Shown here one piece after another: positions 20,046 to 59,773 of a stretch of 64,000 nt of DNA. How positions within the stretch are numbered: position 1 is the stretch's first letter; each line of letters opens with the position of its first letter. The stretch lies in NCBI RefSeq assembly GCF_963921235.1, contig NC_086097.1, positions 88,166,001-88,230,000 on the forward strand. The letters are read 5' to 3'. Under the pieces are notes generated by a model. That model did not search any database, was not told the DNA's origin, and saw only the letters and a list, made by a program, of their open reading frames with translations. The stretch comes from Mobula hypostoma. Taxonomy: Eukaryota. The position numbers were made by a program, and so were the translations under genes.

Positions 20046-22111
20046 TGGTTTCCTGGAACTGGTATTGATTGGGCACTGTGCTGCTCACAATCTCCCTGGC
20101 TGTGAGTTGGTCAGCAGAAAATTCATTCCCTATCCGTATTTACCGGTTGGCTTTCTTCTACTTTTTCCTCTTCTGTCTGGCGCTTCCTCTGCCTGCTTCT
20201 TTGGTTTCCCATGCTTGTTTCATCCTCAGTGAGCAGAGGTTGCAGGTGTCTATTTGCTTTTCTGCTCTTTTCTCCCCATTACTTTTATTCTTGGCAGACC
20301 ATTGTCTCTTGGATGGTGTCTCCTGTGACGACTTCTTCATCCCTCCATTCTTCTCCTTTCCCTCCTCATGGACTCCTTCCCGTCTTGCAGGGGGGCCAGG
20401 AGGTTGAAAGCTTGAGGTGGTCCGCTTTTTCTCTGTCACATCTCATTTTCTGCGTTGGCCAAAGCCTTTGTGCTGGTGGTGTGAACACCATTTGTGTGGG
20501 CATTATCAGTGCTAGCCCCCCCTCATATTGCCTGTGGGTAGGTAGCAGCACATCAGGGCAGGCTTTGTCAAGGTGGCCTGCCTCTCTACACAGGTTGCTG
20601 TGGTTGCTTTCCTGGCACTCCTTTGTCTGGTGGCCTTCCTGTCTGCAGTTCTTACAGATCACTGTACTGCACTGGGCCGTGACATGTGCAGATTTACTGC
20701 AGTCGAGGCACAGCCTGGGTTGACTGGCATACATCATGTTACTGCGGTTCCTTCCACTGGCAAACACCTGAGGGACGGTGGATGATGGAATGATTTGAAT
20801 CCACCCTCAGCTTGACCTTCATCTGGTGCTTGCTTCTCCAGATCCCGAACGTATTTTTGATGTCCATACAGTTTCCTGCTCCCTCAACGTAATGGGCCAG
20901 GAAGGTGAGGATGTCCATAGTAGTTTAAACATGTGCACTGTGATCACATGCTCCTTCTGGGTGGTAATGGTCAGGAGTCTTCGTTTGTGGCAGCGGCAGT
21001 TCATTCCCTTTCTTCCGAATTCTGAAGGATCTTCTGCCATCCTGCCGCGTACTTGAAGGGGATGTCGAAGAAGCCGTTACCTGTGAAGTCTTGGACATAG
21101 TAGATGTCCCTCCCATCTAACCCGCAGCCCTTCAGAAGGGCCTTCCAAATGAAGCAGTCCCTGTTGAAGAGATTTCTATCCCTGAGATTCTTCAGTGCAA
21201 CTCAGCTGGTGTTTCAGATCCCAGGTCCTCCAGTCATTGGCAGATGCAGCTATTTTAACTGGTCTGATTGCTGGGAAAGGGTGTTGAATTAGTTTCTTAA
21301 TCATCATGAGGTTTCGCCCAAATATCAGCAGGTCAAGCTCTTATTGGCCCATTGATCACACTGAGTCCGTCTTCTGTCCTCAATGTCAGCAACCTCAAAG
21401 ATCCACCAAGATGCTACACTTGATCTTCGCGAAAAGGAAATCAAATTTATGTTTCATGGTAATAAACTGTCCAATGTCACAGGATTTTCAGAGTAAAGTA
21501 ATTGCTCAGCTTTTTGTACTGTTTGGTAAAACTCACTGTTGGACGGATAAGCATCAAGATGTTTATGCACTTGAGTTTGTTGAAGCTGTTTATGAATCAG
21601 TTTCCAGCAATTGTTTTGTCTGGTCAGAGATTTCACAGATAGATTTATTCTGCAGTTGACCCTGTTTATAATCTTGTTGGTGCATAAAGACATTAACCAA
21701 TAGTGTTAAAAGTTACATTTCTTTAATTCCTTTTCTCATTCTTTTTTCTTCTACTATTTCTCCATGTCTGCCCAACCATTCATTCAGATGATCATCAATG
21801 ATTGTTAGTGGAATCTTGAAGGGCTAAATCATCAATGATCCATTCAAAGCATCTTGCGCAATCTAAATGCTACAAAATTATTTTCTTCCCTTCTCGCAAG
21901 CTTGGTAGTGCCTTACATTGTGTGCTTTAGTATTTAACTAAGGATGTCAGTTCTCACAGAGAAGTGTATAACATAGATTGGTAGCACGTAGTTAAGTGAG
22001 AGGAATTTGGAAAAAAATGAAATTTTCAATGCAAGGCATTCCTTAATCAGGAATCAGTCGAAGTGAGTGAGAACAGATGAGAGATGAATGGGAACTGATT
22101 TATGGAATCAG

Positions 22112-24468: not shown

Positions 24469-26673
24469 GGCAAGCACTGAAATTGCACCCCTGTCCAAAC
24501 ATCTGACACCCATCTTTTAGATAACTTTACCATAATATCAGTTCAAAAATACAAGTCAAGCTTGTTAATCTTTTAATTAACAAATTATGGCACCACATGA
24601 AAATTATAACTGCTCCTTCCTTGCTTTCACTGATGCAAATTGGACTATGATGTGATCAAAGTCAGGTTTTTTTGTTTCTTCTCTCTCTACACTCAGCAGA
24701 GCAAGATCACAGAGTCTGCCCTGACCCATGGAGGCTCGCAAATATGAAAGTGTTAGTTTTAACTTGCTGAATGATCTCTCACAGCTGGCGATGGAAGCAG
24801 TGATCGTTAGCATGACCTGAATAGCAATGCAAAGATTGGGGAAGACGCTGTCATCTCCATACTGAACAACAAATTCAAGAAGCTCTTCATGTCTTGATAT
24901 TTTCATGTTGACCCACCTTGACAGCAGCATTCTGCAATCCAAAATTTCTTCATATAGTTGCTGTCCGTCAACATCAGAGCTGTACAATTTACCCAAATTT
25001 TTGCACTTCTTCTTTTGGTCTTTACTGTTGGTGCCATAACACAGTCCCATCTGTAGACAATCTTGTAGCTCCATTTCATCCTTCTCTAGCTGTTTCAAGA
25101 TGTCTTCAACCAAGCTGTCAGCATCCTTCTGGCTTATCTGGATAAAACCAGCGAAGGACTCTCTAACACGGACTGTTTTCCTCTCAAAATCAACTTCCAC
25201 ATACCTCGCTACTTCTGATACCTGCTCACAGTGTGCCTGATCAGGAGCCGAGTCGAACATGAGACCATAATACTTGGCTTTACGAATGCTTCTCAGTAAA
25301 CTGTGGCGAATAGTGGATGCCATCATGTGAATGAATTCGTTCTGGACACCTGGTGAAAGATAGGACGTGGATCCAGGATGACTTCAAATAAGTGAGGTGT
25401 TCTTTTATGACAGGGTCAAAGATGGCCAGTAGTTTCAGTAAGCCAAGGAATTTTCCCACATTGGAGTCATCGTCTAGTTGAGGTAACTCCCTGTGTCCTC
25501 GCAAAGCAAGGTTCTGAGTCACAAGGAATTTTATGCAGTGAAGGATTCTCGTCAAGATATCACACCACTTCTGCTTTTCCTTCTCAATCTGTGACTGAAA
25601 TACCGCGTCAATAACTCCTCTGTTTCCAGCTAAATTTCTTTCCATTTCTTTCCACTGTGTGAAGCATTCCCGATGATTCTTGGCATTTTCATGAACACTA
25701 ATCCTTTCAGGTGCTTTCCACTGGTTGAATCCACTTTCCTGCTCCAGTGAGAATTGATGGTCTGACTGGGAATAGAGAAGATAACAGATTCAAAATGCAG
25801 ACTTTTTAGAAGGAGAATAGACCAGCCATGAGTGAGTCACTTCTTCACCACGACCATTTCCCAATTTCCTCTTGAACCAAGTTTTGTTCATTGAGCGGTT
25901 ATTTGTTGGTAGGAAAGGCCCCTCACTCTTCTGGAAATACTTTGAACCCAGCTTTATTATTTCTGTTCTCAACACGTCAGGCAGAATTGCTTTTCCAGTA
26001 TCCTTGTCGGACTTCAGAAGTCCAGTGTCATGCTGTTCAATCACTTCTGGTATGACAGTTCGAGGCTCTTTGACACCATCTGGTTCACTAGGTTCAGTGT
26101 CGTCAGGTTCAATCTCATCAGGTAAAATCTCGTCAATAAACTCAACATCACCACCACCACCATCGTCTTCCCCTCCTGTCATGTCCACATTCTCTGTGGC
26201 AGCCTTACTCTTAATCCAACAGGCTTGGATTTATCTGACTTGACTTCCTCCTCGGCTTGTGATGCATCTATACTTGATCCACCTTTGGATTCTAACAAAC
26301 TTGTAGCAGGTGCAGGCGACTCCATGGAACATGTCAAACTACTTGTTTCGGGCTTTTCAAAGAAGGGCCTGAAGAACTTGCTCGACTTCTTGGCTTCCTC
26401 CGCCTCCAACTTTCGTCTTTTCCATCCTTCAGCTCCACTTTTCTTCTTCGTGAAGAAACGTTTCATGGTCTTCTTACACAATGCTCTGAAATAAGGCCAT
26501 TCTAGTGCTTCTCACGCATGATAATCAAAGACAAATCATACATCTGAAGAAAATTCTTTTTTCACTATCCGGGGATGACTTGTCTGACTTTAACAGAAAC
26601 TGCTCAGTGGCGCCCCCCTTCAATTGGCGCCCTGGGCATGTGCCATACCTGCCATACCTTAGATACGCCACTG
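24469..26673 (-). mobile_element. hAT DNA transposon (TTF zinc finger / DUF4371 / hAT dimerisation, ZMYM1-like), frameshifted and internally deleted
   Basis: ORF pieces 26481-26179, 26188-25790 (SWLVYSPSKKSAF), 25645-25280 (LALRGH) and 25326-24604 (YYGLMFDSAPDQAHCEQ..FPNL..ASCERSFSKLKL..RL..LALLSVE). One terminus cagtggcgtatcta lies at 26673 on the minus strand; the other terminus is not seen. Confidence 0.85.
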
Positions 26674-35466: not shown

Positions 35467-36698
35467 CTAATGGCCACTTTATTAGATTTACCTGTACACC
35501 TTCTCATTAATGCAGATATTGAATGTGGCAGCAATTCCATGCATAAATGTACGTAAACATGGTCAAGAAGTTCAATTGTTGTTCAGACTAAACGTCAGAA
35601 TGGAAAAGAAATGTGATTTAAGTGACTTTGACCGTGGAATGATTGTTTGTGCTAGACGGATACTTTGTGTATCTCAGAAACTGCTGATCTCTTGGGATTT
35701 TCATGCACAATAGTGTCTAGAGTTTATAGAGAATGGTATAATTAACAAAAACATCCAGTGAGCGGCAGATCAGCCGGCAAACGTGCCTTGCTAATGAACG
35801 AGGTTAGGGGGTAATGGCCAGACTGGTTCAAGCTGACAGTAGGGCGATAGTAACTCAAATAACCACGTGTTACAGCGGTGATGTGCAGAAGAGCATCTCT
35901 GAATGTAGAATATGTCAGTTGGGCTAACCCCTATTGACATCAATGGATCTGGGGTTGAGAGGGTAAACAGCTTTTAGTTCCTCGGCATCCACATCACCGA
36001 GGACCTCACGTGGTCTGCAAACACCAGCTGTGTGGTGAAAAAGGCACAACAGTGCCTCTTTCACCTCAGACAGTTGAGGAAGTTTGGTATGGCCCCCCAA
36101 ATTCTGAGAACTTTCTACAGGCGCACAATTGAGAGCATCCTGACTGACTGCATCACTGGCTGGTATGGGAACTGTACATCCCTTAATCACAGGACTTTGC
36201 AGAGAGTGGTGTGGACAGCCCAGCGCATCTGCAGTTGTGAACTTCCCATGATTCAGGACATCTACAAAGACAGGTATGAGAAAAGGGCCAGAAGGATCAT
36301 TGGGGACCTAAGTCACCCCAGCCACAATCTATTCCAGCTACTACCATCCGGGAAATTGTATTGCAGCATAAAAGCCAGGACCAACAGGCTCCGGGCCAGC
36401 TTCTTCCATCAGGCCATCAGATGGATCAACTCACGCTGATTTGAGTGTATTTCTATGTTACATTGACTGTTCTATTTATTATAAATTATAAACTACTATG
36501 ATTTCACGTTGTACATTTAGGAGGAGGTGTAACGTAAAGATTTTTACTCCTTGTCTATGTGAAGTATGTAAGAAATAACGTCAATTCAATTCAATTCTTG
36601 AAGTGGATCAGCTACAGCAGCAGAAGACCACAGATGTACGGATACATTCAGTGTCCATTTTATTAGATATGTGAGATACTTAAAGTGGCCACTGAGTG
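35467..36698 (+). mobile_element. Tc1-like element (deleted derivative) interrupted by a LINE
   Basis: Terminal repeats tggccactttatt and taaagtggccactgagtg|TA. HTH start MEKKCDLSDFDRGMIVCARR at ~35599. Confidence 0.75.
35920..36596 (+). mobile_element. Rex1/Babar-type LINE 3' fragment inside Tc1
   Basis: VKKAQQCLFHLRQLRKFGM..IESILTDCITGWYG..LLPSGK..RTNRLRASFF; tail (caatt)n. Confidence 0.85.
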
Positions 36699-41004: not shown

Positions 41005-42435
41005 TACTAAGCTGGTGAGAAGGGCTCTGGGGAAACTCAAACATGGCAAAGTGTTGGGACCAGGCGGTGTGAACCCCAAGACCCTGAAGGAGTGTGCTGA
41101 GTAGCTGTGTGTTCTCCAGCACATTTTCAATTTGAGTCTCAGCCTGGAAGAGGCCCCGGCTCTGTGGAAAACATCATGTGTGGTCCCAGTATCCAAGAAG
41201 GGCCAACCAAAAGTCTTAAATGACTACTGTTCTATGGCCCTAACCTCACACATCATAAAGACCCTAGCGAGGCTGGTCCTGACTCACCTTCAACCCCTGG
41301 TCAGATCAGCTCTCCATCCCCTGCAAATTGCCTACCAAGAGCACACTGGAGTCAATGATGCTGTCATCTACCTGCTGAACAGAGCCTACTCCCATTTGGA
41401 TAAGCAGGGCAGCACTGTGAGGATCATGTTTTTTGATTTCTCCAGTGTTTTCAATACCACACAGCCCTCAAAGCTCCATTCACTGCAGGTTGGCACTTCA
41501 TTTGTATCCTGGATAATGGATTACCTGACTGGCAGACCACAGTATGTGTGGCTTCAGAGCTGGGTGTTAGACACGGCTATAAGCAGCACTAGGGCTCCCA
41601 CAGGGACTGTATTGGTTCCCTTACTGTTTACTCTGTATACCTCAGACTTTAGATACAACACTGAGTCATGTCATCTGCAGAAATTCTCTGATGATTCAGC
41701 AATGGTTAGGTGTATAAAGGGAGGACAGGGGGATGAATACAGGACCCTGGTGGAGGACTTTGTCAAATGAAGCAAGTTGAATCATCTGCAGCTCAACATC
41801 AGTAAGACAACGGAGGACAAGTGATGAACTTTAGGAAGACTAAGCCTGCACTGCTCCCTGTTACTATTGATAGTGAGGACGTGGATGTGGTGAGGACCTA
41901 CAAGTACCTGGGGGTGCACCTGGATGACAGACTTGAGTGGAGCACCAACACAGAGGCTGTGTACAAGAAGGGCCAGAGTTGCCTCTACTTCCTGAGGAGA
42001 TTGAGGTCCTTTAGAGTATGCAGGCTTCTCCTTCACATGTTCCACCAGTCTGTTGTCTCCAGTACAATCTTCTACGTGGTGTTGCGCTGGGGGAATGGCA
42101 TCAACACTAGTGACGTCAACAGGCTCAGTAAACTGGTTAGAAAGGATGGCTCTGTTGTAGGAATCAAACTGGACACACTGGAAGTTGTGGTAGAACAAAG
42201 GACCCTCCGGAAAATCCTGGCAATTCTGGACAGTGCTTCTCGCCCTCTGCATGCCACCTTGGCTGAACAGAGGAGCACTTTTAGTAATAGACTAAGACAA
42301 CTGTGCTGCTCCAAAGAGCGCTATATGAGGTCATTCTTACCCTCGGCCATTAGGCTCTATAATGAGCCAACTTATAGCCAGGGAAGTGGTGACCCCTTCC
42401 TGTCAGACTGTTTGAGCTAACTTATTTTTTATTCT
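41005..42435 (+). mobile_element. Rex1 LINE reverse transcriptase, 5'-truncated and pseudogenised
   Basis: WKTSCVVPVSKK..VRIMFFDFSSVFNT..GTVLVPLLFTLYTSDFRYNTESCHLQKFSDDS (41132-41770) and YKYLGVHLDDRLEW..SFLPSAIRLYN (41821-42420). Confidence 0.9.
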
Positions 42436-44099: not shown

Positions 44100-46630
44100 A
44101 AGTGAGTTTTATATAAGCCAATAAAAAGAAGGGAGATGCCAGCGGGGTGGCCATTGTTGGAGTGGGCCAAGGTTAGAGTGGGAGGCTTTGGTTCAACAGT
44201 CTTGAGCGAGAACAGGCTTGGACAAGCACAGGTTCTAAGTAAGTTTCCAGTTAATTTTTAAATTTTTTTTTAACATAGCTAATGCACTGAGAATGGGTCC
44301 AGGGTTTGAGGTATATTCTTTGTGTGAGAGGTGGGAACTCGGGGAGACTGGTAGTCTCCCTGGTTGCACTTCATGCAGATGTAGCTTCGAGCTGCAACTT
44401 ACTAATTTGGCAGAGGGATGGAAACCATAGGGCTGAGGATGGCGCATTTGGTATACAAGTGATGCAGTATGTAGTGAGACTGAGGAAGGATAGACAGATG
44501 AGAGAGCAAAATTGCAGCCAGTGGGATGAGTTGAAGTGTAACATCGGGGCAAAAACAAAAAGGGTGATGAATACAGGACTAAAGGTGTTACATTTAAATG
44601 TACATAGTACAGTACATGGATTAAGTTAAATGATCTTGTTATGTAGTTAGAGATTGGATGGTATGGCATTGTGGACATCCTGGAGTCATAGCTGAAAGAA
44701 GATTATAGTTGGGAGCTTAACATCCAAGGGCACACATCGTATTGAAAGGATAGGGAAGCAGGCAGAGGGGGTGGGATAGCTCTGGTTTTTAAAAAAGTGA
44801 CATCAAATCCCTAGAAAGAGGTGACATAGGATTGAAAGATATAGACTCCTTATGGGTAGAGTTCAGAAACTACAAGTGTTTTTTTTTAAAAAAAGCAACT
44901 TGATGGGGATTATATACAGGCCTCTAAACAATAGCTAGGAAATTACAATGGAAGGTGGGAGGTACAAAAGGCATGTGAAAAGGGCAATGTTATGATAGAC
45001 CTGGGGGATTTCAACATGCTACCAGATAGGGAAAATCAGGTTGATGCTGGATCCTAAGAAAGGGAGTTTGTAGGTTGCCTATAAACTGCCTTTGTAGTGC
45101 AGTTTGTGGTTGAGCCCACTAGGGAAAAAGCAATTCTGGATTGGGTGCTGTGTAATGAACCAGATTTGATTAAGGAGTTTAAGGTAAAGGAACATTTCAG
45201 AGGCAGTGATCATAATATGATAAAATTCACCCTGCGGTTTTAGAGGGAGAAGATAAAATCAGGCATATCAGTATTACAGTGGAGTAAAGGGAAACGGTGG
45301 ACAAATTTATTAAGTTTTGTGTTGGTGTTTACTGTGGGATACACTAGCAGTATACCAGAAATTTGAAAGCTGGGCAGAAATAAGTGTAGTTGCTACCAAT
45401 CAGGTGGCGCCTGGGAAGTTGAAAGTCAATGTGGTTTCCTTAAGGGGAAATCTTGCCTGACAAATTTGTTGGAATTCTTTGAGGAAATAACAGGCAGAAT
45501 AGACAAAGGAAAGTCAGTGTACGTTGTTTTCTTAGATTTCCAGAAGGCCCTTGACAAGTTGCTACATATGAGGCTGCTAAACAAGATAAGAGCTTATGGT
45601 ATTACAGAAAAGGTACTAGCATGGATAGAAGATTGGCTGACTGGCAAGAGGCAAAGAGTGGGAATAAACCTTTTCTGGTTGGCTGCTGGTAGAGGTGTTA
45701 CACAAACTTTGTTGCTGGGACCACTTCTTTTCACTTTGTATGTCAGTGATTTGTATGACGGGTTTGAGGGTTTTGTGGTGGAGGGTGAAGGGAGTCTGCA
45801 GAAGGACCTAGACAGATTGGGAGAATGGGTAAAGTGGCAGATGGAATATAGTGTTGAGAAGTGTATGATTGTTCACTTTGGTAGCAGGAAAAAGATGTAG
45901 AATATTTTCTGATCAGGGAGAAAATACAAAAATCAGAAATGCAGTATCTTGGGAATCCATTCTCTAATGGTTAATCACAGGTTGAAGCAGTGGTGAGGAA
46001 TGCAAATGCAATGTTAGTATTCCTTTTGAGAGGAGTAGAATATAAGAGTAACACTGTAATGCTGTGGCATTATAAGGCACTGGTGAGGTCTCACTTGAAG
46101 AATTGTGAGCAGTTTTGGGTGCCTTGTATAAGAAAGGATGTGCTGACATTTTAGAGACTCCAGAGGAAGTTCACAAGAATGATTCAGGGATGAAAGGGTT
46201 AGCACATGAGCATTTGATGGCTCTAGGCCTATACCTGCTGGAGTTTAGAAGAATTAAGGTCATTTAAATCTATTGAATTCTGAAAGGCAAAGATTAAGTG
46301 GATGTGGAGATGATGTTTCACGACCAGAGGACACAGCTTCCGCATTGGGGGATGTCCACTTAGAATGGAGTTGAGGAGGAATTTCTTTAGCCAGAGGGCA
46401 GTGAATCTCTGTTACTCATTGCCACATATAGCTGTCGAGGCCAAGTCATTGGGATATTTAAAGTGGAAGTTGATAGGTTCTTGATTAGTCAGGGTGCATC
46501 AGAGATTACATGGAGAATGTAGAAGAGTAGGGTTGAGAGTAGGGTTTATATTATATCAGCCATAATGAAATGGTGGAGCAGACTCAATGGGCTGAGTGGC
46601 CTAATTTTGCTATTATTTCTCTTGGTCTCA
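44100..46630 (+). mobile_element. Decayed CR1 LINE spanning the 5' region, endonuclease, RT and 3'UTR, with deletions
   Basis: LKVLHLNVHS (endonuclease start), GDFN, GSDHNMI and LEFFEEITGRIDKGKSVYVVFLDFQKALDK; 3' tail actcaatgggctgagtggcctaatt. Confidence 0.85.
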
Positions 46631-46870: not shown

Positions 46871-48324
46871 CCAGATGATGTCAATATCTGACAAAGCTTT
46901 CGCAGCAAAACTCAAATCAGCTAAGCTAATATTTATCCTTTTGGGTAAAGTATAAGCGTCAGAAATCTTGATAAAGATTAAAAATGTTTCAAGAAAGGAA
47001 CCATTGCCATGAGTTTATAGCAATTATAATTTGACATGTTTTAAAGTAATCTGCTTTTTTTTTTGCAACTTTTGCAGATGCCTCCCATTCTTTCTTCCGA
47101 GTCTTCAAGGATTAATTTTTTTTAGATAGGTTTGCTCTTTATGAAGTGCTGAATGCAAAGGATGATAATGAAAGATGCAGTGATCTTCAAGTACTGCGGA
47201 GTAACAATCAAATGATGGATGAAAGTTGTTAAAATGCAACACACTAAAATTATGAAAACAATAAAGAAGGCAGTGAGTGTGTGATGCTGCAGGTTGGAAA
47301 GATAAATTTAGATTAAGATTAAAACAGAAATAGAAATATTTTGGGTGGCTATGTGTGGTCAGTTTGGCTCAGTTGGCAATACGTGCCTCTATGTTGGGAA
47401 GTTACGCCAACAAGCTTTGCTGCAGTAATCCAGTTTCACTTTTCACTGCAGCACAATGCTGCATTTTCAGTGTTGTGGAACTGGATGCTATTCTGTAATA
47501 ATTAAAGTATGCTGAAGTGGATTTGTGTGAGGAATACTTGTCAGTTTCTACCAGATTATCCTCATGTTGACTGAATGCTATGTTTCAAATGTGGTATGTG
47601 TCTTTGGTCTTTGTCTGTGTGCTTGCCTAATACAGGTATTACATCCTTAATGTGAATGTTACTATCTGGTCTCCCACTGCAGTGGGAGCTCTCAAAAGAA
47701 CATGTACTTTAGGAACAAATACTTCAAGTCAAAGGCCTAATGTGTGGCATATTTTTCTTTGGTTGATGGAAACAGGTGCAATGCATCTCTGAGTGATGTG
47801 ATATCTAGGTCACCGAGGGTAGGATTTATTGTCATTGTTGGGAGAGGGGAGGAGACAATCTATCTCCATCGACAAAGAATGCAGTTTTCCCTTACAGTAG
47901 CCTTGAGAAAGCTGGTTTCAACTTCCCACAGCAGGGACTTGATAAATTACAAGCCCTTTAATTTATGTTGGGGCAGATATGTTGCAGGGTACATAAGCCA
48001 AGCATTTGCAATAGAATATTTCTGTAGTGAATTCAGTCATGCATTGCTTACTAATTGATGTCACTGCTGAGCACACAGAAGCTTTTTTTTAATTTGGGGG
48101 ATGTGGGTGTGACAGGCTGAGCTAACATTTCATTGCCCTTGAAAAGGTGATGGTGATCTGCTGCAGTTGTGAATGTGAAGGTATATATATAATACTGATA
48201 AGGAGAGAGTACCAGGATTTTGCTCCAATGATGGTCATTATGCATTGCAACTGTTCAGCAATCTTCCACAGTTTGCGTGGTGTTGTTGCTGACAATGCAA
48301 ATAGAATCCTAAATGCCTGAGAAA

Positions 48325-48965
48325 TTCTACGTTCCTGGGTGTCTGAGAATCTATCCTGAGCCTAACATATTGACGCAATTACCGAGAAGGCACGACAGCT
48401 GCTATATTTCATTAGGAGCTTCAGGAGAATTAATATGTCACCAAAAACACTCTCAAATTTCTACAGATATACTTTGGAGAGCATTCTAACTTGCTGCACC
48501 ATCATCTGGTATGGACGGGCCGCTGCACAGGATTGAAAAAAGCTGCAGAAAGTTGTAAACTTGGCCAGCTCCTTCATGGGTACTATCCTCCCCTATATTG
48601 AGGCCATCCTCAAAAAACAATGCTTCAAAAAAGGTGGCATCAATCATTAAGGACCCCCATTACCCAGGACATGCCCTCTTCTCATTGGTACCATCAAGGA
48701 GGAGGTACGGTAGACTGAAGACACACACTCAATGATTCAGAAACAGCTTCTTCCCCTCCACCATCAGATTTCTGAAGGGACAATGAACCCACGAACACTT
48801 CCTCAGTATTTTCATCCCTCTCTTTTTGCACTCTTTATTTAATTTACATTTTTATATATGCTTATTGTAATTTATATTTTTTATTATGTATTGCAGTGTA
48901 CTGCTGCCACAAACATGAAATTTCACAATGTATGTCAGTGATATTAAACCTGCTTCTGATTCTGC
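48325..48965 (+). mobile_element. Rex1/Babar-type LINE 3' fragment
   Basis: gagagcattctaacttgctgc..aaggacccccattacccaggacatgccctcttc..; same family as 40170-40822. Confidence 0.75.
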
Positions 48966-50144: not shown

Positions 50145-50700
50145 TAATCGCATCGTCAAGCACCTTTGCACCACCCACCACAAGCGGGATTTCCCGGTGG
50201 CCAAACACTTTAATTCTGATTCTCATTCCCTTTCCGACGTGTCGGCCCATGGCTTCCTCTTGTGCCAAGATGAGGCCATTCTTACGGTTGAGGAGCAACA
50301 CCTTGTATTCCATCTGGGTAGCCTCCAGCCTGATGGTATGAATATTGATTTCTTCTTTCTGTAAATAAGTTCTCCCATTCCCCGCTCCTCTGTTTCCCAC
50401 TCTGTCCTTTCACTTCTTCTCACCTGCCTGTTACTTTCCCCTGGGTCCTCTCCTCCTTCCCTTTCTCACATGGTCCACTGTCCTCTCCTATCAAAGACCT
50501 CCTTCTCCAGCCCTTGAACTTTCCCACCTACTTGGTAATCTTTTCCCTCTTTTTTTCCCCCTCCACCTTTTTTTTAAATCAGGTATCTTTCTCCTTCCTT
50601 CTCAGTCCTGAAGAAGGATCTCAGGCCAATGTTGACTATCTATTCATTTCCATAGATGCTGCCTGAGCTGCTATGTTCCTCCAGCATTTTGTGTGTTGCA
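50145..50700 (+). mobile_element. Penelope-like element 3' fragment (GIY-YIG C-terminus plus tail)
   Basis: NRIVKHL..DFPVAKHFNSDSHSLSDVSAHG..EEQHLVFHLGSLQPDGMNIDF, then a pyrimidine tract and cagtcctgaagaagg.. (hammerhead motif with GAAA lost). Confidence 0.75.
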
Positions 50701-51476
50701 ATGATTTGATAAGATCTCACACCAGTGTTATAGGTAATAGTGCCTATAACTGAATGACGGTGTTCTTTGGCAGTAGCCAATGCAACACCTATGGCCATCC
50801 TGACTACAGAGAACATTTGCTGTCTAATGGTGATTTTTATTTAGAATCCTGAATTTTCCAGTATGTGGACTCCTGCTACAATATTTCTCTTGAAGTATTG
50901 TGAGCAAAGCTACATTTATATTACAATATTGGGATATTGATGATGTGTTGAATTATAATTATACCACTCAACATCTGCTAATTAAAATGATAAACTGTTT
51001 TCCTTTTCAACCCTATGTGGTTAAAATTTCTAAGTTTAAAATAAATTTAGTATTAAATACAAACAGTGCCTATAAAAAGAATTCACCCCCCCCACAGATG
51101 TTTTCATGTTTTATTGTTTTACAATATTGAATCATTTAATTTGGTATTTTTTTGACACCGACCAACCAAAAAAGACTCTTTCATGTCAACGTGAAAACAG
51201 ATCTCTACAAAGTGATCTAAATTAATTACAAATATAAAACACAAAATGATTGATTGCGTAAGTATACACCCCCTTTAATATGACACACCAAATCATCACT
51301 GGTGCAGCCAATTGGTTTTAGAAGTGAAATAATTGGGTACAAGGGGACTTCCGGGTCATCAAGGGAATGGCGGCGTAAGGAAAAGGTCTCTCGACAAAAA
51401 AGAAGGTAAACTGCCCCAAAATCGAATTTAGACAAATACTTAATATTGCATAACTATATTAATAAAAGGGGCAAGG

Positions 51477-52481
51477 ATGATGTCTAAGAACAAGAATAAA
51501 AAGTCCGCTGCGAAGGCTGATAAACATAAAGAGATGCAGCAAGGCGAAGGGCCTAGCTCCCCCACGGCAAGCCAGGACGGAGATAATGAGGGGGAATCGG
51601 TGACTCTGTCTTTGATTCTCGGAGAGATTCGCGAATTCCGACAAGATAACAGCAAACAGCTGGAAGATATTAAAGGAGAAATAGTAAAAACTAACTCGCG
51701 GATAGATGAAGCCGAAGCGAGGATTGTTGGAATTGAAGAGAAGCTACAAAATGCCGAGGAAGTGATAGCAGAAATGCTGGAGCTACAAGACCAACTCCAG
51801 TGGAAACTAATAGATCAAGAAGGCCGCTCGAGAAGGGAAAATGTGAGGATCTACGGAGTTCCCGAAGGAACCGAAGGTAAACCCGGATTGATGATTCCCT
51901 TCGTGGAGAAGCTGCTTAGAGAGAACCTTGATATACCGGCCGCAAAAGACCTACAGATAGAAAGGGCTCACCGCGCGTTGGCACCACAGCCTCCGGCAGG
52001 CGCCCAGCCCAGATCGATTCTGATCAGATTTCTCAGTTACAGAACGAAGGAAGAGGTGCTTAAAAGAGCATGGCAAAAGAAAGGTTTCATGTGGAACAAC
52101 TGCAAAATCAGTTTAGACCACGACTACGCACCGGGGATTCTTGCCAGACGGAAGGAATATACGGAAACACGGAGAGTCCTGAAGGAAAACAACATCAGAT
52201 TCCAGACCCTGTATCCAGCTCGGCTGAGAGTCTTTTACGACGAAGGGACAAAAACTTACGCTACGGTAGAGGAGGCAACGTCGGACCTGGCGGACCGGGG
52301 ACTACCTATTAAAGTTATCACCCAACCGGAGTCGCTACTGGGAGAGGATTCGGCTGAAGTCGTGGCAGTTAGTGGGGCGAGGACGCTCCACTCGAAACAG
52401 AGTGTCAAACTACAGGGAAAAGCTGCAAATATTCAGACGCGAATGTACAGAGAATACAGATTAATTAAGAGAAATGACTGA
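51477..52481 (+). CDS. L1 ORF1 protein (Transposase_22 family: coiled coil, RRM, CTD)
   Basis: EGRSRRENVRIYGVPEG, IERAHRAL..PRSILIRF and ISLDHDY..RRKEY..YPARLRV. A probable extra G at ~52340 shifts the C-terminus; the alternative frame reads ERIRLKSWQ..YREKLQIFRRECTENTD*. Confidence 0.85.
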   Translation: MMSKNKNKKSAAKADKHKEMQQGEGPSSPTASQDGDNEGESVTLSLILGEIREFRQDNSKQLEDIKGEIVKTNSRIDEAEARIVGIEEKLQNAEEVIAEMLELQDQLQWKLIDQEGRSRRENVRIYGVPEGTEGKPGLMIPFVEKLLRENLDIPAAKDLQIERAHRALAPQPPAGAQPRSILIRFLSYRTKEEVLKRAWQKKGFMWNNCKISLDHDYAPGILARRKEYTETRRVLKENNIRFQTLYPARLRVFYDEGTKTYATVEEATSDLADRGLPIKVITQPESLLGEDSAEVVAVSGARTLHSKQSVKLQGKAANIQTRMYREYRLIKRND

Positions 52482-52826
52482 AAAGAGTAAATCGGACTTA
52501 AAAGTAAAATGAAAACTGGTAACTGAAAATAAACTAGGCGGAATAACTTGAATGATAGCAATATGGTCGAGACATAAATAGGAGAAAATTCTCTATGATT
52601 ATTCAAACTGCTGAGGGCCCTCTAACACAGGGTGAAGATAGAAGTTATCCCTCTGAACTGAGGCGGGTCGGTGCTCAGGCCTCACTGTGGGAAGTCGGGG
52701 AAAATTTTCAAATGTTATACGTTCAGAAATGTCTAGGGTGTGGTTATATGTCTTGGTTTACTGTTGAGAAGGGATTGCTTACTGTTTGGTTAGAAAAGGA
52801 GAGTGCTTTTTTTCTACTAGAGAAAA

Positions 52827-53606
52827 ATGCAAACTGAATTGGTAAAAATAATTTCCTATAATGTTAATGGGGTTTTGAATCCAATTAAAAGAAATAAGAT
52901 TATGTCTAAATTGAAAAAAGAGAGGGCACAAATAGCTTTCCTCCAGGAAACACATATGAGCCAATCTGAACATGGAAAATTAAAAAGAATGGGCTTTAAG
53001 CATGTATTTTATTCATCATATAAATTGAGTCACAAAAGAGGGGTAGCTACTTTAATATCAAGTACTCTTAATTATGAACATATTTCAGAGACTAGAGACA
53101 AAGAAGGACGGTTTGTAAAAATCACAGGAAGAATAGAAGGTACAGAAATAACATTGCTGAATGTTTATGCTCCTCCAGGTAGTGAATGGTCATTTTATAG
53201 ACACATTTTTGACCTAATGGTCAGTTCTCGAGGGGTAGTAATTTGTGGAGGGGATTTTAATATTAGATTAAATCCTATATTAGATTCTTCAAGAACAGTT
53301 ACTCAGAATAAACCTCTGACTCGGAAAGTGAATTCATTGATGGAGGAGTTGGGAATTATAGATGTCTGGAGGGAATTACACCCTACTAGTAAAGATTATA
53401 CATATTACTCTTTCCCTCATTCAGCCTATTCAAGGATAGACTATTTCTTTATCTTTAATACAGATAGACTCAGGATAAAAAACTGTAATATTGCAACAAT
53501 TGATCTGTCGGATCATAGCCCAGTCTCTATGTCTCTAATCCTGGAAAGGAAAATGAGGAAAACACTATGGAGGCTAAACTCACATATTTTATCAAATCTG
53601 GAATAA
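52827..53606 (+). CDS. L1 ORF2 APE-type endonuclease domain only (truncated)
   Basis: SYNVNG, LQETH, NVYAP, GGDFN, SRIDY, SDH and WRLN are all intact in one frame. Confidence 0.9.
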   Translation: MQTELVKIISYNVNGVLNPIKRNKIMSKLKKERAQIAFLQETHMSQSEHGKLKRMGFKHVFYSSYKLSHKRGVATLISSTLNYEHISETRDKEGRFVKITGRIEGTEITLLNVYAPPGSEWSFYRHIFDLMVSSRGVVICGGDFNIRLNPILDSSRTVTQNKPLTRKVNSLMEELGIIDVWRELHPTSKDYTYYSFPHSAYSRIDYFFIFNTDRLRIKNCNIATIDLSDHSPVSMSLILERKMRKTLWRLNSHILSNLE

Positions 53607-55365
53607 ATGGATTGAATATATAACCCCAATACGAGCAGACTTTAGATGACTCTCCTAATGATTTATATTGCTCTTCTCATCAACACAGTAATATTGCTAA
53701 CGTAAGCACCCCTAGTCTAAATGTTTGTTGTTTTTTTTTGGAAAATAGAGAATTAACACAAGTAAAGGGAAAGATTTGGGAAAGGGATAAAAAAAAATGA
53801 AAAAATTAAGTAAATAAGTACATAGGGATTGGATAATTATGTCTGCGGGCAGGAACAAGCACGAACAAATTGGGATATAAACACCTACAATGGTTGGTAT
53901 ATAGGCTTGTATGCAACATTTTGGACCAGTCGAAATGGTCCAGAAGGGTTGTATGGAAACTATTATTACCATTTTTCTTAACAACTAATTTCATTACTTA
54001 GCCTAATAGGTTAGATTTATCACAGTACACAATTATCTATTTAAATGTTTATTTTCCTTTTATATCATCTCAATATCTCCTTAAGAATGTATAAATAATT
54101 GTGGTTTTGTACATATAAAAAAATGGAAAAGGTTATATGTGTGAAAAAAGTACATGATAATTGTGAATTCCTTATCCAAATAAAAATAAAATTAAAAAAA
54201 AATAAGTGGTACAAAAAAGCAAAAAAAAAAGTGACATAATTAGTTAAATGGAGATCACTGTGTGCAGTCAAGGTGTTTCAATTGATTATAGTAAAAATAC
54301 ACCTGTATCTGGAAGGTCCAACTGCTGGAGGGTTAGAATCCTGACAAAAACTACCCCATCAAGACAAAAGAACAGTCCAAGCAACTTCGCAAAAAGGTTA
54401 TTAAAAAGCACATGCCAAGAGATGGATAGAGGAATATTTCCGAGTCACTGATCATTTCTGCAAAAATAGCAAAGAGAAACCAACTGTTTGAAAAAATAAC
54501 TCACATGACATCTTGGCTACAGTTTGCCAGAAGGCATGTAAGAGCTTCTGAAGTAGCTGGAAGAAGGTTCCGTGGTTTAATGAAACCAAAATTGAGCTTT
54601 TTGGCCATCAGACTAAACGCTATTTTTGGTGTAAGCCAAACACCATACATCATCAAAAACACACCATCCCTATGGTGAAACATGTTGGTGGCTGCACCAT
54701 GCTGTGGGGATGCTTCATGCAGCAGGTCCTGGAAGGCTTGTGAAGGTAGAGGGTAAAATGAATACAGCAAAATACAGGGAAATCCTGGATGAAAACCTGA
54801 TGCAGTCTGCAAGAGAACTGCAACTTGGGGGAAGATTTGTTTTCCAGCAAGACAATGAACCCAAGCATAAAGCCAAAGCTACATAGGAACGGCTTAAAAA
54901 CTTAAAACTTAAAAAACTCCAGGTCATTAACTTAAAAACAATAAAGTTAATGACCTGGAGTGACCAAGTCAGAGTCTAGACCTCAAATCAATTGAGAATC
55001 TGTGGTTGGACCCGTCAAGGGCTGTTCACTCACAGTCCCCGTGCAATCTGACAGAGCTTTAGTAGTTTTGCGAAGAAGAATGCGGAAAATTGCAATGTCC
55101 AGATGTGTAAAGCTGATAGAGACCGAGCCACACAGACTCAAAAGGTGCATCTACTAAATTCTGACTTGAAGGGGGTGAATACTTAAGCAATAAATTACTT
55201 TGTGTCTATTAATTGTAATAAATTTAGACCAATTTGTGAAAATTTATTTTCACTTTGATATGAAAGTATCTGTTCTGTTGATCAGTGTCAAAAAGTCAAA
55301 CTATTATTCAATGTTGTAAAAGAATAAAACATGAAACTTTCCAAGGTGGGTGAATAGGCACTATA

Positions 55366-58130: not shown

Positions 58131-59773
58131 CAGGTGTCCCCCGCTTTTCGAACGTTCGCTTTACGAAACCTCACTGTTATGAAAGACCTACATTAGTACC
58201 CTGTTTTCGCTTTCAGAAGGTGTTTTCACTGTTACGAAGAAAGGCAGCGCGCGATAAAAAATCAGCGCGCAAAAAAAATCAGCGCGCGATAAAAGGCAGC
58301 GCACGCCCCGAGCAGCCGCTCTCCCCCGGATTCGGAACAGTATTGCTTAAACACGAGCCTGTGAGCAGCCGTTTGCAAGATAAGTTCTAAGGTATCAGAA
58401 AAGCCTAAAAGAGGTCGTAAAGGTGTTACACTTAGCGTAAAACTAGACATAATTAAGCGTTTTGATCGTGGTGAATGAAGCAAGGACAAAGTGAGTTTGG
58501 CTTGTGGAAGCTGACGAAGATGATGTTGAAGAGGTTTTGGCATCCCATGACCAAGAACTGATAGATGAAGAGCTGAAGCAATTGGAAGAGGAAAGGATAA
58601 CAATCGAAACCGAATGCAGTAGTGAAAGTGAAGTCGTCCAGGAACTGAACGTGAAGCAACTGCGTGAGATTTTCCCTGCAATGATAAAGTACAACTTTAA
58701 TTTTGAAAGGGTATGTAGGTTTAGAGGATATTTGCAGGATGTTTTGAGTCCTTACAAAGAACTGTGTGATAGAAAAATGCTCGAGGCTCACCGGTCAAGC
58801 AAGCCTTCCACATCAGCCACAGCAGACGATGAACCTCGACCTTCGACATCGAGGCAGGCAGTCATAGGAGAAGATGAGCTGCCTGCCCTGATCGACGATG
58901 AGATAACACCCCCGTGTCCCACCACCCCAACCCCCGGGCCCCGGACAGATACTGTACTGATTCGCGGAGAATGCAGTGGTAGCCGGGAGGCACACAGCAC
59001 ATCTTTAAGAAAAAAGCCAAAATAAACATGCTAATTAATTAGGTGCCGCCTGGCACGTAATTGTCGGCCCAGATCAGAGACGATACAATCGGCAATCGCC
59101 TCTGATCTGCGCCGACATTTACGTGCCGGGCAGCACCTAATTAATTAGCATGTTTATTTCGGCTTTTTTCTTAAAGAGGTGCTGTGTGCCTCCCGGATAC
59201 CCCTGTGTGCTTCGCGGCAATGTATCAGTCGGTGGCCTGGAGGGTGGGGGCCACTGCGCCACCCCAACCTGTGACGACTCAGTCTAACACACCATCATCA
59301 GTGTGCTCGGCGCTGTTTTCCCAATTCTGGTAAGTGATACTACACTGTACATACATTATTTCTACCTTATATAGGCTGTGTATTTTTACGTGTTATTTGG
59401 TATGATTTGACAGCTTCATAGTTTAAAGGTCACTGGAGAGTGCGTTTATGCCAACAGCGCTTGCGTGAGATCTTCTGCCGAGAGTGCTTGCGTGAGATTT
59501 TCGCTATGGAGATCTGTGCAGGCAATTGTTGTAGAGAAGTATTTCTACTTTATATAGGCTGTGTATTTATCATATCATTCCTGCTTTTACTATATGTTAC
59601 TGTTATTTTAGGTTTTATGCGTTATTTGGCATGATTTGGTAGGTTATTTTTGGGTCTGCGAATGCTCACAAGATTTTCCCATATAACTGGTAATTGCTTT
59701 TTCGCTTTACGACATTTCGGCTTACGAACGGTTTCATAGGAACACTCTACCTTCAGATGGCGGGGGAAACCTG
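58131..59773 (+). mobile_element. Tigger/pogo DNA transposon, internally deleted
   Basis: TA|caggtgtcccccgc at the left and ggcgggggaaacctg|TA at the right. CENP-B-like N-terminus KPKRGRKGVTLSVKLDIIKRFDRGE is joined directly to the acidic C-terminus EDDVEEVLASHDQELIDEEL; no DDE domain. Confidence 0.85.
58978..59200. repeat. Long near-perfect palindrome (~105-bp arms) inside the Tigger element
   Basis: ccgggaggcacacagcac..atgctaattaattaggtg..agatcagag pairs with ctctgatct..cacctaattaattagcat..gtgctgtgtgcctcccgg. Confidence 0.9.

Follow-up and report, generated by a model that had tools for sequence, protein, structure and literature searches.

A fairly young fish-type LINE-1 copy in Mobula hypostoma that keeps an open endonuclease frame and has lost its reverse transcriptase, probably in a one-off deletion

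The element at 51335-54228 of the window (the whole 64-kb stretch of DNA that was analyzed) belongs to an ordinary fish-type LINE-1 (L1); it is a fairly young copy from which about 3 kb of the middle is gone, the reverse transcriptase (RT) included. We consider it likely that the deletion was a one-off event in a single copy of an autonomous fish-type L1 family, and the copy is probably dead and no novel type of mobile element. An earlier, sequence-only reading had offered a one-off deletion as its alternative; this is the explanation favored here.

The copy is complete at its 5' and 3' ends, lies between 13-bp target-site duplications (TSDs) within a Tc1-like relic, and has lost ~2.97 kb (Table 1). 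The relic was delimited by terminal inverted repeats at 51102-51278 and 55336-55166 (78.5% identity; extended afterwards), by decayed transposase-like frames at 54552-54886 that were read by eye, and by numerous paralogous contigs. Empty paralogues of the relic join 51321 to 54229, skipping 2907 nt, in five contigs of run X9 and one of X6. The true insertion is larger than the extent first proposed for the element, 51343-54199: it is flanked by the 13-bp TSD and has additional bases at either end. The A-runs and the TSD agree with the poly(A) tail and variable-length TSDs of L1-clade LINEs, and blastn and tblastn searches of the 64-kb window returned no further copies of the element. Judging by their sequence, the short extras at both ends look like the TSD of the source locus. 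Both contain the 7-mer GGTACAA; in a post hoc test, 0.4% of 8-mers drawn at random from the window and 0.2% of shuffled tails matched as well as this. A family contig of X1 begins at 51345, supporting bases 51335-51342 as extra. The signature of the source locus would read ...GGTACAA before the L1 and TAAGTGGTACAAAAAAGC behind its poly(A). These putative transductions point to one identifiable source and are silent on whether that source was already deleted. A nested insertion, in which the L1 TSD would be a 15-16-mer ending in GGTACAA within an earlier, tiny A-tailed insert, is less parsimonious because it requires two insertions at the same spot and two TSD mismatches.

Table 1. Features of the L1 insertion and its surroundings (positions in the window)
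Feature	Position	Strand	Remarks
Tc1-like DNA transposon relic	51064..55363	+	old; holds the L1 inside
Left TSD, 13 bp	51322..51334	+	12/13 identical to right copy
8 extra bases before L1 5' end	51335..51342	+	putative short 5' transduction of source locus's TSD
Complete L1 5'UTR, CpG-rich	51343..51476	+	X1 record 1 covers 51345-51736, 3 differences
ORF1, frameshifted	51477..52464	+	1-nt insertion at 52340
Inter-ORF spacer	52465..52826	+	
ORF2 remnant, complete APE endonuclease (EN)	52827..53606	+	253 native residues, then short out-of-frame tail to stop
Deletion junction	53586..53587	+	2-nt overlap (AT); ~2.97 kb (~989 codons) of ORF2 gone
Last 20 ORF2 codons and stop	53587..53649	+	out of frame with EN
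3'UTR, two AATAAA signals, first A-run	53650..54202	+	
18 extra bases and second A-run	54203..54228	+	putative short 3' transduction carrying the TSD and flank of the source locus
Right TSD, 13 bp	54229..54241	+	matches left copy 12/13

The 5' end is complete as had been described, with both of the motifs acttccgg and aatggcggc, which we take to be ETS-like and YY1-like, present in the sequence, and CpGs are retained (observed/expected: 5'UTR 0.92, ORF1 0.95, window as a whole 0.29). ORF1 is of the L1 type, having 314 homologues, several of them named L1 RRM-domain proteins (best 84%), together with a weak match to PF02994 (E=0.003, below the cut-off). It had been called near-intact; the frame is present, but the 1-nt insertion shifts it and throws the final ~40 residues, which are conserved, into a different frame. 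In that frame the family C-terminus ends at 52464, and the shifted frame stops at 52481. The insertion is missing from the X1 and X6 contigs of the family.

The uninterrupted 259-aa endonuclease was found as claimed: the frame is open throughout, it matches PF03372 (E=1.8e-15), and the catalytic motifs are present and aligned with those of human ORF2p (E=2e-41). From these comparisons the predicted EN fold is clear, and an APE-type EN at the N-terminus of ORF2 is as in the L1 clade. Identity is 92% to Mobula birostris ORF2 (P0003) over 202 aa and 75-76% to P0001 and P0002. Since the WD stands at ORF2 residue 286 and the break at 254, the EN fragment ends before the cryptic WD. The out-of-frame jump near 53590 to the last ORF2 codons was likewise borne out, 17 of 19 residues matching the C-terminus of P0002. 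RT and the Cys-rich region, both parts of ORF2 in an autonomous L1, are absent from the copy as stated, neither having a match in the element or elsewhere in the window. Among 240 proteins, none was a stand-alone EN or an EN fused to the C-terminus, and the exact sequences are absent from the protein collection; the power of this search is low, as it also gave no partial ORF2 of organism A that was nearly identical, 79% being the best identity at near-length. The truncation points of 120 EN-only database proteins showed no pile-up where the present copy breaks off, with 11 in the 240-259 bin versus 8-13 per bin over 180-379.

The size of the missing segment was estimated from P0001, P0002, P0005 and P0007. 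An alignment to the parent had been suggested as a check for microhomology or GT..AG ends; it yielded the AT overlap, and none of the three cut registers (AT..AC/AA, TA..CA/AA and AC..AT) gives the missing segment GT..AG ends. An origin by GT..AG splicing was rejected because these ends do not fit, and U12 AT..AC splicing was rejected because the AT..AC register is unlike the U12 donor consensus, ATATCC. All parts of the element are collinear on the plus strand, and the lack of a 5' inversion speaks against twin priming. Loose contig ends occur behind 53587 and before 53586 in X1, X6 and X9. The junction itself rests on the assembly of the window, as no contig piece spanning it was present among the matches listed, and its pattern had 0 matches among metagenome contigs, where a vertebrate repeat would not be expected. 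These results would suit an assembly artefact, i.e., a junction produced by collapse of, or chimerism between, L1 copies. We regard this as very unlikely, given that a 2-nt overlap is far too short for overlap-driven collapse and that the matching TSD, the continuous Tc1 and the common 7-mer make both ends parts of one insertion. In the best runs the word share was 0.76; the private differences listed for the copy, from which 0.79-0.81 is expected, roughly account for this value. The measure is blind to the junction, which ~3 of 298 words touch.

The family was examined in contigs of the organism that matched best and of a relative (runs X1, X6 and X9; 24 pieces listed and 33,998 further), the small-share runs X19, X20 and X24 being left out; the raw-read run X21 was set aside as unrelated, each of its four aligned reads falling on Tc1. 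Parent sequence extends past the junction on both sides in all three informative runs. The 5' breakpoint is crossed unbroken by X1 record 4 (1309 nt, depth 52.7) and by one X6 contig, the 3' breakpoint by one X1 contig, and the depths in X1 are at similar levels for the EN region (52.7), ORF1 (60-78) and the 3'UTR (82). Among the matches listed, no branch at the 5' breakpoint was seen in X1 or X6. The parent family, an autonomous fish-type L1 with a full ORF2, is abundant in the ray genome and was recently active. Contigs cross the 5' breakpoint without interruption, so the deleted form does not amount to a major family, although it may exist in a few copies. A low-copy deleted lineage would be invisible here because Logan contigs drop rare variants.

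Such a lineage would be an incipient HAL1-like element: the deletion would have arisen in an earlier copy, which full-length ORF2p then mobilized in trans one or more times, with EN as a passenger. In our estimate this lineage is unlikely. It would be consistent with the intact ends, promoter and poly(A) signals, and with the extras, which suggest a transcribed source locus. Zero-difference contigs of X6 lie just downstream of the insertion (54299-54607 and 54854-55100, depth 8-12) and none upstream, a signal that fits read-through transcription from the element, X6 being RNA by our guess. A Pfam search of 119 flank frames identified no host gene behind this signal; of its 3 matches (E up to 0.01), one is a LINE relic and two are below the cut-off, and short exons would escape such a search. 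Internally deleted non-autonomous LINEs and HAL1 are also known (excerpts of PMC5786205 and PMC5753468). Against such copying stand the unbranched 5' breakpoint, the frameshifted ORF1 of the present copy, and the preference of human L1 proteins for their own RNA in cis (PMC5860796, in part). It is similarly unlikely that the source locus was already RT-less, which would mean that an ORF1+EN derivative has been trans-copied at least once in the ray lineage and that a non-autonomous L1 family is seen here at its very start, with transcription continuing and a free minimal endonuclease perhaps being made.

The copy is fairly young, as had been proposed, differing from the consensus by ~0.7% (20 differences in 2723 nt). 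In simulations at the observed divergence (20,000 per rate) EN stayed open in 56-65% of cases; with a frame open in ~60% at ~0.7% divergence, youth by itself makes an intact EN the expected outcome. At 1 difference in 835 nt, EN lies nearer to the consensus than do the remaining pieces, which have 19 in 1888 nt (Fisher p=0.012); against the 5'UTR and ORF1 alone, p=0.10. The listed EN changes, 0 synonymous and 1 non-synonymous, are too few for dN/dS, and in ORF1 6 of 10 are non-synonymous, in addition to the frameshift. The low divergence of EN was counted against a one-off deletion, yet on the listed changes it does not look like a pattern of protein selection. The headline of the sequence-only reading, an ORF1+EN family, is not supported, as the contigs are full-length and, in X1 and X6, unbranched at the 5' breakpoint, youth explains EN, ORF1 is frameshifted and the WD is missing. 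In its strongest form, an amplified non-autonomous family whose functional stand-alone EN is under selection and which borrows RT alone, it is highly improbable. A helper ORF2p brings its own EN, and the single listed EN change is non-synonymous. The complete EN with its catalytic motifs and lower divergence could be cited for this form, as could the complementation between EN and RT fragments in human cells; however, the fragment here is without the WD that complementation needed, a human L1 EN fragment lacking it having given no split-ORF2 Alu retrotransposition (excerpts of PMC4889948). EN-only fragments are, moreover, toxic when overexpressed (PMC4176336, in part).

Under a one-off deletion, the transcript of a full-length source L1 would have begun a few bases ahead of that element and ended a few bases beyond it, and would have been inserted here by normal target-primed reverse transcription with its own ORF2p. 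The deletion would have arisen once, in one of two ways: after ~620 nt of cDNA, RT may have resumed ~3 kb further upstream, on the RNA it was copying or on a sibling of it, or end-joining repair may have removed the segment after insertion. EN would survive because the break lies immediately after it and there has been too little time for decay, and would give the element no mobilizing advantage. Private changes, including the ORF1 frameshift, would have been gained since, and transcription of the copy may continue, its promoter being intact.

As a lone deleted copy, the element has little importance. Since the insertion seems to carry the TSD of its source locus at both ends, parent and daughter are comparable and the deletion datable. 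A multi-copy junction would mean trans-mobilization of RT-less L1 RNA in a cartilaginous fish, an early HAL1-like birth; if EN were also conserved across copies, this would be a non-autonomous design that we did not find described in the open-access literature searched.

With autonomous fish-type L1s (P0001/P0002, Mobula birostris ORF2, and medaka O93521, which we take to be Swimmer 1/SW1) the copy shares ORF1, EN, the ORF2 C-terminus, poly(A) and TSD, but it is without ~989 ORF2 codons and its ORF1 is frameshifted. HAL1 (half-L1) and other ORF1-present bipartite LINEs (HeT-A, Ag-Sponge) have, as here, kept the 5' end, ORF1 and the 3' end and lost RT (passages of PMC5786205 and PMC5753468). 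In the same passages HAL1s are amplified families that encode ORF1p alone, whereas here the EN frame is kept, ORF1 is shifted instead of giving an intact sole product, and no amplification is seen in the X1/X6 contigs, in which the deleted form is not major and which drop rare variants. According to parts of PMC4176336, 92 human and >500 mouse retrotransposition-incompetent L1 loci can make truncated EN-bearing ORF2p, and these resemble our copy in their full 5' end, intact EN and early stop; they are defined by premature stop codons with ORF1 intact, whereas here the deletion makes the stop and ORF1 is frameshifted. SpIREs (spliced integrated retrotransposed elements), described in part of PMC5860796, are internally deleted L1 insertions and evolutionary dead ends. 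The copy shares their internal deletion but not their splice sites. Single internally deleted or rearranged L1 copies have, as here, both ends intact, a TSD, a short junction overlap and no sign of amplification. Non-inverted internal deletions reportedly arise in L1 assays, a finding ascribed to Gilbert et al. in 2005. The internal deletions that accompany 5' inversions are short (median 14.5 bp; excerpt of bioRxiv 10.1101/2024.08.27.596794), whereas the one here is ~3 kb and without inversion. A single internally deleted L1 copy is a known and ordinary kind of element.

The element is real: it is a young L1 copy with an internal deletion, and its family is a normal one. As the sequence-only reading had described, it starts at 51343 with a CpG-rich 5'UTR; CpG o/e is 0.92 in the 5'UTR and 0.95 in ORF1, against 0.29 for the window. 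The uninterrupted 259-aa endonuclease (EN) frame reported there is an APE endonuclease located at 52827-53606 (PF03372, E=1.8e-15), and it aligns with residues 8-258 of human ORF2p (E=2e-41), an alignment in which the motifs SYNVNG, LQETH, NVYAP, GDFN, SRID and SDH, which hold the catalytic residues, are present. Just two blocks of the element match full-length fish L1 ORF2 proteins, namely residues 1-257 and the last 19 residues of those proteins. The second block (53587-53643; 17/19 identical to P0002, one of these proteins) is out of frame with EN, and the RT and Cys region, which had also been called absent, has no match in the element or elsewhere in the window. ORF2 has lost about 989 codons (some 2.97 kb). 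Among named relatives the closest is a Mobula birostris protein with an RT, XP_072114005.1 (92% identity over 202 aa), which makes a ray the probable host. NCBI labels it HMG-CoA reductase isoform X1; it is an EN + RT ORF2 of this L1 family, and the gene model is mis-named.

Part of the element was contained in 20 of the 24 sequencing runs listed, and at least half of its words in 10. Four runs were compared with it: X1 and X6 (organism A, the best match), X9 (organism B, a relative) and X21, which turned out to be unrelated. In each of the informative runs (X1, X6 and X9) the family sequence goes on beyond 53587 into the remaining ORF2, and it reaches 53586 from the ORF2 end. The comparison with the parent that had been proposed showed that the two parent ends have just two letters in common, AT, and that the deletion can be cut in three registers, of which none gives GT..AG ends; the element is therefore not a spliced L1. 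One register of the deleted segment is AT..AC, with a donor that does not match the U12 consensus. No inversion was found at the deletion. RT may have stalled and jumped, which would fit a 3' piece of about 620 nt, close to the 503-bp median given for non-inverted somatic L1 insertions in one preprint (bioRxiv 10.1101/2024.08.27.596794); later end-joining at the 2-nt overlap would fit equally.

In X1, one 1309-nt contig (depth 52.7) runs unbroken from 52753 across the 5' breakpoint and 474 nt past it; one X6 contig likewise extends over this breakpoint, and at the 3' breakpoint one X1 contig does so. Were the junction abundant, the assembly graph would be expected to fork there. Unbroken contigs, and an X1 depth over EN similar to the depths over ORF1 and the 3'UTR, show that within the family the deleted form makes up no major share; summed X9 depths suggest a family size of the order of thousands (a rough figure, not a copy number). 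Between the two readings offered earlier, the full-length unforked contigs in X1 and X6 speak against an amplified, EN-keeping non-autonomous family, and a one-off deletion is favoured, which we consider quite probable. No piece spanning the junction was seen among the 24 contig pieces listed (33,998 further pieces). Contigs of the Logan type, according to PMC12424806, lose every k-mer that occurs a single time and undergo simplification by SPAdes-like heuristics; they evidence presence, not absence, and a trans-mobilised lineage of few deleted copies, an unlikely origin, would be missed. Truncation points among 120 EN-only database proteins were flat, with no cluster at this breakpoint, and this tail or an EN/C-terminus fusion occurred in 0/240 database proteins, a search of low power, since it likewise brought up no near-identical partial ORF2 of organism A (best near-length identity 79%). 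No ORF1+EN non-autonomous LINE family was found described in searches of the open-access literature.

The L1 sits in an old Tc1 relic, and Tc1 paralogues join 51321 to 54229, which defines the 13-bp TSD and an insert of 51335-54228. The extra bases at both ends have GGTACAA in common, a match that 0.4% of random 8-mers from the window and 0.2% of tails after shuffling also attain in a test chosen post hoc. On the simplest reading of the sequence, these extras look like the TSD of the source locus, brought along in a pair of micro-transductions, one 5' and one 3'. The RNA would have extended a few bases beyond the source L1 on either side, bearing the source TSD at both ends; L1 transcription reportedly starts at variable sites a little ahead of the element. 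A single source for both ends argues against a two-locus chimera or assembly collapse, and with both ends so tied an assembly artefact is very improbable. The extras provide a handle for finding the parent element, be it full-length or already deleted.

Features of the window and of the insertion
Feature	Position	Strand	Remarks
TSD	51322-51334 and 54229-54241		13 bp, 12/13 identical
5' extra	51335-51342		8 bases before L1 start
ORF1	start 51477
3' extra	54203-54228		18 bases + second A-run after first poly(A)
Zinc-knuckle (CCHC) frame, gag/ORF1-like, retroelement relic	20366-20806	-	PF00098
hAT transposase relic, several frames	24604-26230	-	PF05699 E=1e-10, DUF4371
Relics of other LINEs, RT or C-terminal pieces	35978-36439, 41105-42420, 45367-45900, 48366-48533	+	RVT_1, ALKBH8_N matches
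Weak APOBEC2/NAD1 Pfam matches, below cut-off	47741-48055	+	E about 0.005 among 119 frames
176-aa acidic frame	58495-59025	+	No match in Pfam search

The APOBEC2/NAD1 matches are probably chance, the translation having no obvious deaminase motif, and the acidic frame looks like a Tigger/pogo transposase C-terminus. X6 contigs of 309 and 247 nt are identical to the downstream Tc1 relic (0 differences, depth 8-12; 54299-55100), and X6 depth on the upstream flank 50700-50993 is zero. With X6 guessed to be RNA, this suggests, as a lead only, that transcripts from the promoter of this L1 read through into the flank, with a few per cent of the strength of the family signal. No piece bridging the L1 tail and flank was among the 24 listed, and no host gene explaining the downstream signal was found in the flank frames.

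Against organism-A contigs, the copy shows 20 differences in 2723 nt (0.73%) plus one inserted base, counted on the seven X1 pieces listed for the element. In unique flank, organism B differs from the window at 7/322 nt, which probably places the insertion after the organism A/B split. At 0.5-1% divergence, 56-65% of simulations left the EN frame uninterrupted, so its intactness needs no selection. EN differs at 1/835 nt versus 19/1888 elsewhere (Fisher p=0.012; p=0.10 versus 5'UTR/ORF1 alone), which counts against a one-off deletion, yet it is not a protein-selection pattern: EN has one listed change, non-synonymous (Thr at 157, consensus Ile), and no synonymous change (40 of 128 difference rows listed). 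The ORF1 differences at 51752 and 51794 are shared subfamily variants, which would inflate this contrast. ORF1, described earlier as near-intact, and indispensable to a HAL1-like element, has a frameshift that displaces the C-terminus conserved in relatives, and 6/10 changes listed among those 40 rows are non-synonymous. Differences from family contigs also cluster at 52340-52415 (4 in 76 nt) and at 54075-54109 (5 in 35 nt), where they create a second local ATCTC and are perhaps a templated event.

A helper ORF2p brings its own EN, and the fragment here breaks at ORF2 codon 254, ahead of a cryptic WD lying at about 286. For human L1, PMC4889948 describes complementation between EN and RT fragments in Alu mobilisation, which failed with an EN fragment that had no WD; shorter EN fragments were more toxic (PMC4889948; PMC4176336). 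L1 loci with the capacity for a truncated, EN-bearing ORF2p are frequent (92 in human, >500 in mouse; PMC4176336). Applying these mammalian data to fish L1 by inference, keeping the fragment would bring no evident benefit to a non-autonomous element. A family selected for stand-alone EN, for which the lower EN divergence speaks, is scarcely credible given the non-synonymous sole listed change and the lack of WD. The element resembles the RT-less HAL1 (half-L1) families, as portrayed in PMC5786205 and PMC5753468, in its 5' end, ORF1, 3' end and absence of RT. HAL1 are amplified families, against a deleted form that is no major one in the X1 and X6 contigs. HAL1, moreover, encodes only ORF1p from an intact ORF1, whereas here the EN frame is kept and ORF1 is frameshifted.
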